Source: Deinococcales bacterium (GTDB lineage: Bacteria > Deinococcota > Deinococci > Deinococcales > Deinococcaceae). From it: 28,864 nt of DNA. This document shows positions 1 through 28,864 of the stretch, in pieces. Every line of letters starts with the position of its first letter. Position 1 is the first letter of the stretch. Both the position numbers and the translations under genes were made by a program. The stretch covers positions 1 through 28,864 of the forward strand of contig JANYFS010000611.1 of assembly GCA_025359705.1 (NCBI GenBank), in the 5' to 3' direction. The notes under the pieces are model-generated. The model had not been told where the DNA came from and made no database searches. It saw only the letters and a list, made by a program, of their open reading frames with translations.

Positions 1-98
1 ACTCAAGATCACTCAATCAAAAAAGTAAACCAATCGTCTGAGACACGGTATTTACATCTAGCCTCGAGATGAACACCATATTACAGGTAACTACTTTA
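1..98 (+). repeat. Partial copy (left end outside window) of the dispersed ~120-175 bp MITE-like repeat
   Basis: TCTGAGACACGGTATTTACATC (37-58) matches TCTGAGAAACGGTATTTTCACC in the 22500-22620 copy. A degenerate right TIR GGTAACTACTTTA (86-98) falls at the colinear position, and its terminal TTA is the phosphoesterase stop codon. Confidence 0.6.
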
Positions 99-995
99 GC
101 GAAACAAAGCATTCAAACTGGTGGCTTGGGCGGCATTTCCCAGCAAAGGCAGGCCAAAACCTTCTTCCAGACCGCGCAACAGCGAGTAATGGTTGAACAA
201 GGTATTCGACTCCAGGTGGCCTTTGCTGCTGCCCGAAATCACCACAGTCAAGATTTTTCCGCCTTGGTGCAGGCTCGAGGGGACTTCTTTGGTCATCAGT
301 TCATCTTCGTCGAAGGTTAAAATAATCAGCGAATTTTTAGTCCACTGCGGGGATTTCATGATCTTGCCCACGGTATTGCCCACAAAATCGTCGGCGGCTT
401 TTTCCAGCAGGGCAGGGCGGTGGCAGTTAGGGGCGCTGTGCATGTCGGTGCATTGGTCGGGAACGATGAAGGACAAGTTGGGTGAACCTTTGGCAAGGTC
501 GCTGTACAACTGCTCGAGTGGAACCACATTCCGCGCTCGAGCGGGGTTATCTTGGATTTGCTTGTACAGCATAAAGGGATTATGTTTTTTGGCGTACAGG
601 GCCACGGGCAAGGTGTAATCCACGTTGGAACCCGCTTCGGGGATGCCTTGCATGTAGGCTTTCCACGTTTTATGCACCCCCTCGAGCTGATCCGCCAGAT
701 TGGGGCCAGTCAGTACCCGCTGCGAATTGTCATCCCGAATGCCGAAAGTATCGCCCGCGATCATGGCGATGTAATTGGGCATACTGGGGTGGGTGATGCC
801 GTAATAGTTGGTGGTATAGGTATATTTTTGGGCCAAAGCATTGAGTTTGGGCATACGGGCATTGCCCAAAATGCGGCCCATGCTATGATTTTCCAGAATG
901 ATGAGGTAAGCATGGTCAATTTGAACGGGTGCGACTTGAGTCGTAGCCAGTAAAGTAAACACTGCCAGTGAGGTTCCGTGCATCAGTACATTCAT
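96..995 (-). CDS. Secreted phosphoesterase-family protein (acid phosphatase/phospholipase C-like)
   Basis: Motifs ILENHS, THPSMPNY, YAKKHNPF and SFIVPDQCTDMH; hydrophobic N-terminus resembling a signal peptide. Confidence 0.85.
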   Translation of the reverse strand: MNVLMHGTSLAVFTLLATTQVAPVQIDHAYLIILENHSMGRILGNARMPKLNALAQKYTYTTNYYGITHPSMPNYIAMIAGDTFGIRDDNSQRVLTGPNLADQLEGVHKTWKAYMQGIPEAGSNVDYTLPVALYAKKHNPFMLYKQIQDNPARARNVVPLEQLYSDLAKGSPNLSFIVPDQCTDMHSAPNCHRPALLEKAADDFVGNTVGKIMKSPQWTKNSLIILTFDEDELMTKEVPSSLHQGGKILTVVISGSSKGHLESNTLFNHYSLLRGLEEGFGLPLLGNAAQATSLNALFR

Positions 996-1075
996 CGTTC
1001 TAGGCTAAGCATTTTATGCCACGGCTGCATGAAGTCTCGAAGACCTATCAAGGGAAGTGTAGCTTGGCAAACAAA

Positions 1076-1166
1076 TATCCCTCGAGCCTATCCCTTGGGC
1101 CTATCCCTTGGGCCTATCCCTCGAGCCTATCCCTTGGGCCTATCCCTCGAGCCTATCCCTTGGGTC
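1076..1166. repeat. 13-bp tandem repeat x7, TATCCCT(CGA/TGG)GCC
   Basis: Units read directly from 1076: A,B,B,A,B,A,B, where A=TATCCCTCGAGCC and B=TATCCCTTGGGCC (the last B unit ends ...GGTC). Overlaps the GGDEF stop codon. Confidence 0.95.
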
Positions 1167-2850
1167 GCACACAATTGCGCCCTGACAACTTGGCTTCGTA
1201 GAGCAAAAGATCAGCGCTCGAGATCATGTGCTCAAAACTTTCCACTTGGGTGTCGCTGGTGTAACCGATGGATAAGGTGACTTTTAGCCCTGGTGCCAAG
1301 ATAGACCAATCAAAATCTTGCACGGTCAGGCGCAGGCGTTCACAGAAGTCCCAAGCTCGAGCGGTGGTTAAACGTCTTGCCAGTAAAACAAATTCTTCAC
1401 CACCGTAACGAGCGCACAGGTCTCTCGAGCGGGTGTGCGCTTGCAAAAATTGGGCAATTTGGGCCAATACTTGGTCGCCAATGCGGTGTGAAAATTGGTC
1501 GTTGATCCGTTTGAAATGGTCGATGTCCAGCATCACCACGGTCAGCGGCTCCCCAGTGGCTTGAGCCTGCTCAAAAAGAAAACTGAGCCGCTCATCGAGC
1601 AAACGGCGGTTGGCAAGGCCCGTGAGCGGGTCATGGTTGGAGAGATGTTCAAAGGCTCGAGATTGGGCCTCGAGCTGGGCATTGAGTTGGGCCAATTCTT
1701 GGTTGCGTAAGCGCTGAAGTTCGCCGTCGTGGTGTGCTTTTTCTAGGGCCAAGCGGCTCGTCATCAGCTCGAGCTGGGCGCTGGCGGATTCGCTCCGCAT
1801 CTGTTGATCCAGTTGGTGAAAGGCTTTGAAATGTTGCAAGGCTTCGGCAAAATAACCATGTTTCTCCAGCATTTGCGAATAATCCCGTTGAGCCAAATAC
1901 AACTCGCTTAAAACCTGTGAACGCTCCAAAACCTCGAGCGCCGACTCGAAATGCAGTTTGGATTGTTCAAAATCGCCCATCAAATCATAAACTTGGCCCA
2001 ATTCGCTCAGGGCAATGCCCAAGTGCCTTTGGTTTTCAATATTTTGGGCATGGTTTTGGAGGGTTTTGAGGGTGTACAAGGCTTCGGGAAGTTGCTCAAG
2101 GCTGCGCTGCACCGCAGATAAACTGCTCAGGGTTTCACACAAATCGCCCAAAGATCCACTTTGCTCCGCCAGACGGATGGCTTCCTCGATATTTCCCTTG
2201 GCCTTTTGCAGCAGTTCTGCTCGAGCCAAGCCAGCGGGCATTTCTTGGGCCAGCATCACTTGAGCGTAGCCCAAATTATTTAAAATATAGTTGAGTTGCT
2301 GATTATCTGGGGTTTGATAATAAATTTCGGTCAACTGTTCAAACTGTTCCAAACTGCGAGCATAATCCCGCATTTCTAGAAAAGTTGCCCCAATATTGTT
2401 GCGAATTCGCAGCACATACGCTGCATCGTCGATTTCTTTACTAATATTTAAGCCTCGCTCGAAATATTGCAGCGCTTGGTGTGAAGCCGAAAGTTGGCTA
2501 TAAATGATGCCCAAACTATTGAGCGCACGGGCTTTATGATACAGATCTTGGTGTTGTTCAAAAATGAGCAAGGCCCGCTCGAGCGCCTCGAGTGCTTCGG
2601 GTAAACGTCCCAAATGCCGCGCCGCCCAACCAATGCCCAACAGTGCTTGGGCTTGCTGGTTGATGGAACCTTGGTCTTGGGCTAATGCTTCCGCTTCTCT
2701 GGCCCAGATCAGACCTTGGCGAGCTTCGCCTTCGTCCAAGTCCACAATCCGCTCGAGCAGCATGTGTAACCGCTCTTGGGGCGTGCTGCTCTGGTGCGTA
2801 CTCTGGTGTGTAGACGCGAGATGGGGCAAACTCGAGGGGGACTGGGGCAT
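1153..2850 (-). CDS. TPR-repeat diguanylate cyclase (GGDEF)
   Basis: N-terminal TPR-like helices (ALNSLGIIY, IRNNIGATF, ILNNLGYA). C-terminal HDPLTGLANRR, MLDIDHFKRIND, RYGGEEF, and an RxxD I-site (RSRD) five residues before GGEEF. Start 2850 (MPQS) is preferred over 2886 but is uncertain. Confidence 0.92.
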   Translation of the reverse strand: MPQSPSSLPHLASTHQSTHQSSTPQERLHMLLERIVDLDEGEARQGLIWAREAEALAQDQGSINQQAQALLGIGWAARHLGRLPEALEALERALLIFEQHQDLYHKARALNSLGIIYSQLSASHQALQYFERGLNISKEIDDAAYVLRIRNNIGATFLEMRDYARSLEQFEQLTEIYYQTPDNQQLNYILNNLGYAQVMLAQEMPAGLARAELLQKAKGNIEEAIRLAEQSGSLGDLCETLSSLSAVQRSLEQLPEALYTLKTLQNHAQNIENQRHLGIALSELGQVYDLMGDFEQSKLHFESALEVLERSQVLSELYLAQRDYSQMLEKHGYFAEALQHFKAFHQLDQQMRSESASAQLELMTSRLALEKAHHDGELQRLRNQELAQLNAQLEAQSRAFEHLSNHDPLTGLANRRLLDERLSFLFEQAQATGEPLTVVMLDIDHFKRINDQFSHRIGDQVLAQIAQFLQAHTRSRDLCARYGGEEFVLLARRLTTARAWDFCERLRLTVQDFDWSILAPGLKVTLSIGYTSDTQVESFEHMISSADLLLYEAKLSGRNCVRPKG

Positions 2851-28154: not shown

Positions 28155-28386
28155 AGTATTCACCGCTCCGTCTCTCATCCGTGAGCTTCCTCGGATGATT
28201 GGAGTTTGTATGGGTTTGCTTTTTGCTCGAGCTAGGGCCAATGATGGACGGTTTAAGTATAGCAGTAGAAAGAGCTTTGGCAAGCGGCACATCTATGCAG
28301 GATGTTTTTGCTGGTTCGTTTTTCGTCGGGATCAGCGGGTTAGTGTTTTACAATGTGATTGGAAAATTTGGACTTTGGAGTAAAAT

Positions 28387-28659
28387 ATGCTATCAAACAG
28401 TGGTATCGAAGAAATGATGAACGCCGCTCGAGAGATGGTTGAGCCAATGGAAACACCCAAACCCACCGAAAAACTATTGCAATTTTTGCGACATAAAAGT
28501 GATAGTAAAATTGTATCGATCATGATTGTTTCAAAACTGTTCGATATGTCAATTCCTATAGCCAAAGAAGTTGTTCACTCGAGCCAAACATGGTCGGATC
28601 GGTTTGAGGGGGATGAAGCGTTGCATGATGAAATCGAAAAAAGTAGTGCTGAACTTTAA
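28387..28659 (+). CDS. Small hypothetical protein, possibly with an L7/L12 C-terminal-like fold
   Basis: 90-aa ORF with LR..SKIVSIMIVSKLFDMSIPIAKEVVHSSQTW; start uncertain. Confidence 0.45.
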   Translation: MLSNSGIEEMMNAAREMVEPMETPKPTEKLLQFLRHKSDSKIVSIMIVSKLFDMSIPIAKEVVHSSQTWSDRFEGDEALHDEIEKSSAEL

Positions 28660-28707
28660 GTGGCTTGCAAAAACTCGAGCCAAACTCCAAACCCATCACA
28701 AACCCCA

Positions 28708-28864
28708 TCACAACATTGGCAGACGCAAACGCTTCGAGCGTCGGTACAACTGGGCAGGACGGCCCACTCCCACGCGGCGTTCCCCTGCCCCCTCGAGCGC
28801 GTCTCCACTCAGGATGCGCTTGCGGAAATTGCGTTTGTCCAGTTTTTTCGCCAAAATCGCTTCG
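28708..28864 (-). CDS. 3' fragment of an NrtR-family (NUDIX-wHTH) regulator
   Basis: My translation of the minus strand from 28863 gives EAILAKKLDKRNFRKRILSGDALEGAGERRVGVGRPAQLYRRSKRLRLPML*. The LDKRNFRK and GRPAQLY motifs are typical of the NrtR DNA-binding domain. Not in the supplied ORF track (truncated by the window). Confidence 0.85.
   Translation of the reverse strand, partial: EAILAKKLDKRNFRKRILSGDALEGAGERRVGVGRPAQLYRRSKRLRLPML

Follow-up and report, generated by a model that had tools for sequence, protein, structure and literature searches.

A dispersed CTCGAG palindrome far above chance in the genomes of several Deinococcota lineages

The stretch of DNA analyzed here, contig JANYFS010000611.1 of a Deinococcales bacterium (28,864 nt, 44–54% G+C (GC); hereafter the window), carries housekeeping genes, mobile elements and spacers interspersed with copies of the palindromic hexamer CTCGAG (Table 1). 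An exact search found 188 of these sites, the first at 63-68 and the last at 28792-28797, whereas 100 dinucleotide-preserving shuffles of the window averaged 4.1 and never exceeded 9. With open reading frames (ORFs) as a proxy for genes, 98 sites are in-frame CTC-GAG (Leu-Glu), 13 are read as xCT-CGA-Gxx, 44 as xxC-TCG-AGx, and 33 lie outside ORFs. The initial annotation of this DNA had counted about 185–190 sites over the same coordinates, had estimated a roughly 25-fold enrichment and had placed the sites in several reading frames as well as in intergenic DNA, all of which agrees with the exact search and with the genome-wide value given below. Its statement that the window has no methyltransferase gene likewise holds, with none found among the 20 largest window ORFs.

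Table 1. Positions of the CTCGAG sites and of selected features in the window
Feature	Position	Strand	Remarks
Dispersed CTCGAG sites (188)	63..28797	.	6.5 per kb
13-bp tandem array	1076..1160	+	Units alternate CTCGAG / CTTGGG; three CTCGAG units
IS605/TnpB element	14533..15979	+	6 sites, 4.2 per kb
AT-rich MITE-like family copy (MITE, miniature inverted-repeat transposable element)	15970..16100	.	64 copies genome-wide, zero CTCGAG
Low-GC spacers and small ORFs	19540..20680	.	Non-coding sites at 19618, 19810, 19998, 20540
Seryl-tRNA synthetase gene	24216..25478	+	Conserved housekeeping gene, 14 sites in 1.26 kb

In the genome that holds the window (G000; 3.47 Mb in 637 contigs, 51% GC), CTCGAG occurs 24,536 times in 3,470,132 bases, which amounts to one site per 141 bp or 7.1 per kb. 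This is 27.7 times the zero-order expectation and 28.5 times the frequency in G002, a sister genome of the same GC content. CTCGAG is the top hexamer of G000, where no other hexamer reaches half its count, and the runner-up palindrome is only 2.5-fold enriched. The word therefore lies within the range of highly iterated palindromes (HIPs), which are recognized by an excess of at least 15-fold, far above that of other words. The excess is real and extreme, and constitutes a HIP-type phenomenon in a new phylum.

Taking long, non-overlapping ORFs of G000 as genes (2,719 ORFs, 2.63 Mb), we found 6.9 sites per kb within ORFs and 7.6 in the remainder. The excess was highest in strict spacers, defined as the 1,253 stretches of 30–400 bp between ORFs (44% GC), where 9.0 sites per kb compare with 0.18 expected, an approximately 50-fold enrichment. 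Shuffling synonymous codons within each gene, which preserves both the protein and its codon usage, reduced the ORF sites from 18,198 to 2,263, and permuting codons reduced them to 919. Indeed, 81% of the Leu-Glu pairs in G000 are spelled CTC-GAG, while elsewhere CTC accounts for 10% of Leu codons and GAG for 32% of Glu codons. Leu-Glu is also the most over-represented dipeptide of this genome (14,241 against 6,006 expected, or 2.37-fold, compared with 0.99 for Glu-Leu). The CTCGAG excess thus persists after codon and dipeptide correction, and both the shuffles and the spacer density agree with the earlier argument that Leu-Glu coding alone is insufficient. Around gene ends there is a mild rise directly after stop codons and a dip at starts, a pattern that does not fit a promoter or terminator signal. 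CTCGAG is kept at about 28 times chance by a force on the DNA itself, not on codons.

The G000 assembly also provides an internal control against a technical origin of this excess, namely contig C219, which has 3 CTCGAG in 8.8 kb (L261:1-8817). This contig encodes a eukaryote-type non-LTR (long terminal repeat) retrotransposon resembling long interspersed nuclear elements, with an endonuclease/exonuclease/phosphatase domain, a reverse transcriptase and an RNase H, and it contains palindromes that are avoided by the remainder of G000. It is almost certainly a mis-binned eukaryotic contig. Contigs C239, C541 and C126 are word-poor in the same way.

Within G000 the distances between sites are exponential-like (mean 136, median 93, coefficient of variation (CV) 1.07); there is no quasi-periodic spacing, and the sole period is that of the codon (modulo 3). 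The observed/expected ratio (O/E) stays at 24–28 across all local-GC bins, with an index of dispersion of 1.6. Pairs of CTCGAG 6 bp apart are completely missing from G000, because this spacing creates GAGCTC, an avoided word. Compositional bias around the sites is confined to two flanking bases per side, so that the word is dispersed without a longer repeat unit, and these flanks favor C-S-CTCGAG-S-G symmetrically, whichever of the three frames a site is in, and likewise in spacers. Such a weak palindromic flank preference suggests a putative symmetric protein reader.

The trait is patchy across Deinococcota. We surveyed 364 genomes of the phylum, using the reversed word GAGCTC as a control of the same composition (one of these genomes, G325, is unpublished and supports no claim made here). 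Besides G000, CTCGAG is abundant in G001 from the same genus (8.6 per kb) and in G004 from a neighboring genus (3.6 per kb at 68% GC), and all 19 genomes of the uncultured family f5 are rich in it (4.3–6.8 per kb). Densities of 2–3.5 sites per kb are seen in several genera of f2 and of f4, the family to which Thermus-like genomes belong as well. The Thermus-like genomes themselves have about 1 per kb, the same as for GAGCTC, and 111 Deinococcus genomes have 0.01–0.36 per kb, which is below expectation. For G002, the value of 0.25 per kb at 50.1% GC is exactly that of chance. Leu-Glu pairs follow the same division: their O/E is 2.38 in G001, 2.10 in G004 and 2.28 in G145 (a member of f5), with 75–84% of the pairs spelled CTCGAG across rich lineages, compared with an O/E of 1.30 and 7% in G002.

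The position of G002 was examined using the seryl-tRNA synthetase of the window, which is 77% identical to that of the metagenome-assembled genome 'Deinococcaceae bacterium STL-DEI1' (G002) and 65% identical to that of Deinococcus xinjiangensis, which bears out the assignment to Deinococcota in the initial annotation. The 4.25-kb G002 locus that encodes this orthologue (L019) contains not a single CTCGAG. A maximum-likelihood tree of this one gene has the topology (G004,(G001,(G000,G002))) with 99% support at the inner nodes, and a one-gene tree places f5 as a separate rich clade beside f4. As the poor genome G002 is nested among rich ones, the simplest reading is that CTCGAG was inherited in the clade of G004, G001 and G000 and was probably lost in G002.

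Some rich genomes also avoid other palindromes. Approximately 25 hexamer palindromes are 20–80-fold depleted in G000 relative to G002, including CGGCCG, GACGTC, GGGCCC, GAGCTC, CGATCG, GGATCC and CTGCAG, together with words containing CCGG. G001 and, in the distant family f5, G145 avoid a nearly identical set, which G004 and G002 do not. Given that G004 is rich in CTCGAG and lacks this avoidance, the two properties are separable.

To describe how the sites evolve, we compared G000 with G002 over 159 pairs of reciprocal best matches with 62% amino-acid identity. Leu-Glu stands in G002 opposite only 35% of G000's in-frame sites, while 65% lie opposite other dipeptides (Leu-Asp, Ile-Glu, Leu-Ser, Leu-Gln and others), meaning that amino acids have changed; where Leu-Glu is conserved in both genomes, 259 of 299 pairs are CTCGAG in G000. 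Sites are also retained better than other hexamers, namely at 85.9% against 62.1% in paralogous stretches within G000, at 87% (590/682) against 45–48% in five f5 species pairs of about 86% nucleotide identity, and at about 60% (74/124) against about 39% in four non-coding interspersed repeat families. The changes observed at CTCGAG sites in paralogues and f5 pairs are mostly C/T and G/A transitions and affect both cytosines. When changes within f5 were polarized, 172 informative positions yielded 12 gains and 41 losses, a small sample with biased singleton inference. In one repeat family there were four changes from TTCGAG to CTCGAG and no other changes at that position, although these are few and possibly reflect shared ancestry.

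Repeats and mobile DNA differ in how they carry the word. G000 has at least five interspersed repeat families of 13–96 copies, with window copies near 15970-16100, 18844-18931 and 22500-22581; the consensus of the 96-copy family includes CTCGAG and that of the 64-copy AT-rich MITE-like family does not. The latter family was rejected as a neutral clock with which to time gains, since a consensus without any one-mismatch precursor makes its emptiness uninformative. Mobile DNA carries CTCGAG too, less densely, as in the IS605/TnpB element of the window. The two unit types of the 13-bp array, which lies at the end of a GGDEF gene, are two substitutions apart with no intermediate. Elsewhere in the window, a tellurite-resistance-type cluster (TerD, a TerD-vWA fusion and TerB) at 3050-7921 adjoins a DUF1501 gene. 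Matches to the window were found in public sediment and rock metagenome runs. Among the 40 listed of 961 differences between the window and these runs, none falls in CTCGAG, with about 1.6 expected. Tandem duplications of 12 bp at 18562, 22468, 22647 and 22723 are present or absent between the window and the public-run contigs, which indicates that the many short tandem duplications of G000 are polymorphic between strains.

Several known systems resemble this pattern in part. Like CTCGAG, HIP1 (GCGATCGC) and the alternate cyanobacterial palindromes (GGCGCC, GCsGC, rCCGGy) are short palindromes dispersed in coding and non-coding DNA, and such HIP-type words are 15–300-fold over-represented (Elhai 2015, PMC4390886; Xu et al. 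2018, PMC5861425; Rodriguez-Cruz et al. 2026, PMC13756078). The likeness to HIP1 extends further: positions are conserved between relatives, the word is patchy within the phylum with some lineages lacking it, carriers avoid many other palindromes, and methyltransferases track the word poorly. Unlike HIP1, CTCGAG belongs to Deinococcota, is a hexamer with a TCGA core rather than an octamer with a GATC core, occurs once per 141 bp with near-random instead of quasi-periodic spacing, and has no detected counterpart of the conserved orphan methyltransferase pair DmtA/DmtC. According to two reports, the abundance of HIP1 is correlated with genes for type IV pili and competence, with methyltransferases below significance, and HIP1 raises transformation in a way that depends on methylation (PMC13756078; bioRxiv 10.1101/2024.09.10.611283).

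The DNA uptake sequences (DUS) of Neisseria and the uptake signal sequences (USS) of Pasteurellaceae also share features with CTCGAG, in that one word is enriched in genes and spacers, distorts peptides, is retained across species and is accompanied by abundant one-mismatch decay products, all of which weak drive by uptake and recombination can explain. DUS and USS are non-palindromic words of 9–12 bp that occur about once per kb and for which uptake bias was shown experimentally, whereas CTCGAG is a palindromic 6-bp word with no known uptake bias or receptor, and competence genes do not separate rich from poor genomes. In E. coli, Dcm/Vsr very-short-patch (VSP) repair shapes the frequencies of CCWGG and CTWGG; the effect is small and the T-variant is depleted. 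There, too, a repair bias tied to a methylated palindrome raises the cognate word, and G004 has a Dcm-Vsr gene pair; however, the effect for CTCGAG is 28-fold, its T-variants are not depleted, and nearly all rich genomes lack Vsr. Lastly, methylated RAATTY (CtsM) marks self DNA during natural transformation in Campylobacter jejuni. By analogy, this motif may resemble CTCGAG in its proposed role, as a frequent short palindromic hexamer read as a self mark, but it is frequent because of AT-richness rather than through a 28-fold drive, and one conserved orphan methyltransferase is responsible for it.

Viral contigs dense in CTCGAG were considered as a related pattern and rejected, since the matches listed were mostly high-GC viruses with equal GAGCTC. 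In the complete virus genome G364 (loci L386-L391), which spans 110,308 bp and has terminal repeats, CTCGAG occurs 318 times and GAGCTC is absent; this genome also enriches CGATCG and TCGCGA 5–7-fold and has a Leu-Glu O/E of only 1.3, and its pattern therefore differs from that of G000. A 14-kb viral fragment (L339) carries 5.2 CTCGAG per kb in all frames and in spacers. In the literature searched, we found no report of CTCGAG over-representation in Deinococcota. The accessible part of a 2026 preprint lists CTCGAG among the methylated motifs of hot-spring communities and ties it to no Deinococcota genome.

To explain the excess, we tentatively favor a weak fixation bias at the DNA level for a 'self' word that is read during uptake or recombination; the initial annotation, too, had named a DNA-binding or uptake role as one possibility. 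CTCGAG would act as a mark of self DNA, possibly after methylation by lineage-specific enzymes, and CTCGAG-rich DNA would be favored when taken up or recombined. The resulting spread of alleles with the word would resemble the molecular drive of DUS and USS and what is now proposed for HIP1. Under a simple reversible balance of mutation and fixation, the 25–28-fold excess over each one-mismatch neighbor would correspond to a scaled bias of about ln 28, or about 3 per site, for which a weak per-site advantage or conversion bias suffices and which would be comparable to strong codon bias. G000 does have the uptake machinery, with ComEC and a secretin.

Several observations weigh against this explanation. 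ComEC and the secretin (PilQ) do not discriminate, being present in 29–30 of 31 relatives including poor ones such as G002, and among the genes searched (methyltransferases, Vsr, XhoI, ComEC, secretin, AddAB-like, NucS) we found none whose presence tracks the trait. No receptor is known for CTCGAG, and a word of 6 bp is a poor means of telling foreign DNA apart if sites are not read many at a time. The near-random spacing (CV 1.07) is unlike that of quasi-periodic HIP1, and losses exceeded gains in f5, so that no net gain was shown in that small and biased sample. Finally, selection for another DNA-level function would produce the same sequence statistics. A wider version of the self-mark idea is slightly less probable: in several Deinococcota clades, CTCGAG might serve whole lineages as a watermark of their own DNA, recognized by a putative uptake or recombination factor or by a defense that spares word-rich DNA. 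It would have arisen independently of HIP1, and highly iterated palindromes would then be a general and convergent bacterial strategy.

Alternatively, the word could be maintained by methylation-coupled biased repair, as in Elhai's model, where a methyltransferase and a mismatch-specific nuclease or glycosylase convert near-cognate sites and protect existing ones. We consider this unlikely, even though CTCGAG is a classic Type II target that many Deinococcus genomes avoid and the differences at sites are mostly C/T transitions. The phylum also contains the matching enzymes: at locus L025:6897-8794 of G020, an XhoI-family endonuclease gene is convergent with one for an SPPY methyltransferase (N4-cytosine type), the sole such pair among 31 relatives. 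This endonuclease family (PF04555) was detected only in G020 among 31 genomes, and neither in G000 nor in the rich genomes searched, and the XhoI-linked methyltransferase is merely 22–26% identical to the beta-class enzymes of G000 and was dismissed as a candidate. The DNA methyltransferases of G000 number at least ten, with five of the C5 type, two of beta class, two of Type I, a fragment and two large Type IIG fusions, and each class tried as the cause was rejected. Orthologues of the two beta-class enzymes (C212, with DPPY, and C303, with SPPF) are missing from G004 and from most f5 genomes, even though the SPPF enzyme is orphan-looking and sits among housekeeping genes. Among the five C5 enzymes only L014 has a relative (59%, in G022), with none in G145 or G004, and identity for the Type IIG fusions does not exceed 37%. 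Overall, in searches with PF00145, PF01555, PF07669, PF02384 and PF02086, whose specificities are not readable from sequence, no methyltransferase orthologue was common to G000, G004, G022 and G145. G002 lacks a methyltransferase of any of these five families, which fits a link to methylation but is confounded by its reduced 2.3-Mb genome.

The repair component fared no better. Vsr is present in 28 of 364 genomes, mostly CTCGAG-poor ones; searches of the 19 f5 genomes, of G000 and of G001 detected none, and among rich genomes only G004 has it. There, at L148:1489-3007, the C5 methyltransferase gene, the sole stand-alone DNA methyltransferase gene found in this genome, overlaps the Vsr gene as a textbook VSP pair; an SNF2/ResIII helicase gene follows, and a 422-aa ORF without a Pfam match precedes the pair. 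Yet T-variants are not depleted in rich genomes, G004 included (O/E of 1.1–2.4 for CTTGAG/CTCAAG and 1.1–3.2 for TTCGAG/CTCGAA). More generally, one-mismatch words are near their expected frequency, at a median of 0.85 times that in G002, and do not show the depletion that directional conversion had led the initial annotation to anticipate. Common fill-in products of a staggered XhoI cut can be excluded, as CGATCG occurs only 28 times in G000. AddAB-type PD-(D/E)XK nucleases, considered in view of a Chi-like mechanism, and NucS do not follow the trait by their presence. The initial proposal of a HIP-like system built on an XhoI/PaeR7I-type site therefore stands in its HIP-like part (a 28-fold excess in all frames and spacers, with conserved positions), while the XhoI/PaeR7I part, methylation-coupled directional repair, is without support.

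Somewhat less probable again is an array of binding sites, in which an abundant symmetric DNA-binding protein, nucleoid-associated or chromosome-organizing, would read C-S-CTCGAG-S-G, with weak selection keeping about one site per 140 bp. The palindromic flank preference in all contexts, the even density (O/E and dispersion as above) and the retention of sites in non-coding repeats are consistent with such an array, and a weak per-site coefficient would be enough. However, we found no candidate protein and no positional pattern relative to genes, 8-bp palindromic extensions reach 25% against the 31% predicted by independent flanks, and G002 lost the sites completely without obvious harm. It is improbable that CTCGAG is a relic, written by a past drive that is now extinct and slowly decaying. 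The excess of inferred losses in f5 (41 against 12 gains) would fit this idea, and G002 shows that complete decay can happen, but four lineages that are mutually saturated at synonymous sites still spell 75–84% of their Leu-Glu pairs as CTCGAG, and retention is about twice that of other hexamers, non-coding repeats included, so that continuing maintenance is needed. The controls refute both a technical artifact and an origin of the excess as a side effect of codon, dipeptide or compositional bias: 63% of coding sites in G000 are in-frame CTC-GAG, and both codons are favored in high-GC relatives, where Thermus-like genomes have as many CTCGAG as GAGCTC, yet only 12% of ORF sites survive synonymous shuffling, CTC and GAG are not preferred outside the word, spacers reach 50 times expectation, the same-GC sister genome and the contaminant contig are at background, and the trait is seen in independent assemblies from other studies.

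For thirty years HIP1 has lacked an explanation and has passed for a peculiarity of cyanobacteria. That an unrelated phylum has a second, denser word shows the phenomenon to be general. What is new here is the occurrence of the trait within Deinococcaceae together with a nested loss, its survey across the phylum, its separation from palindrome avoidance in G004, and the exclusion of candidate genes. The Deinococcota add comparative leverage beyond cyanobacteria, through a GC range of 45–68% and a clean loss in a same-GC sister, and the trait is graded, from 2–3.5 sites per kb in Thermaceae-side genera, which may include cultured strains, to 4–8.6 per kb in uncultured clades. It has reshaped the proteome by about 8,000 extra Leu-Glu pairs, which bears on models of protein evolution and on codon-based gene finding, and on binning, where CTCGAG density sets contaminants apart from true contigs. 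The range of mechanisms is narrowed by the negative results, with Vsr, an XhoI nuclease, a conserved methyltransferase, ComEC/PilQ, AddAB-like nucleases and NucS out as discriminators. If the watermark reading is true, the rich genome G000 and its sister G002, which has lost the word, would constitute a natural knock-out for finding the reader gene.

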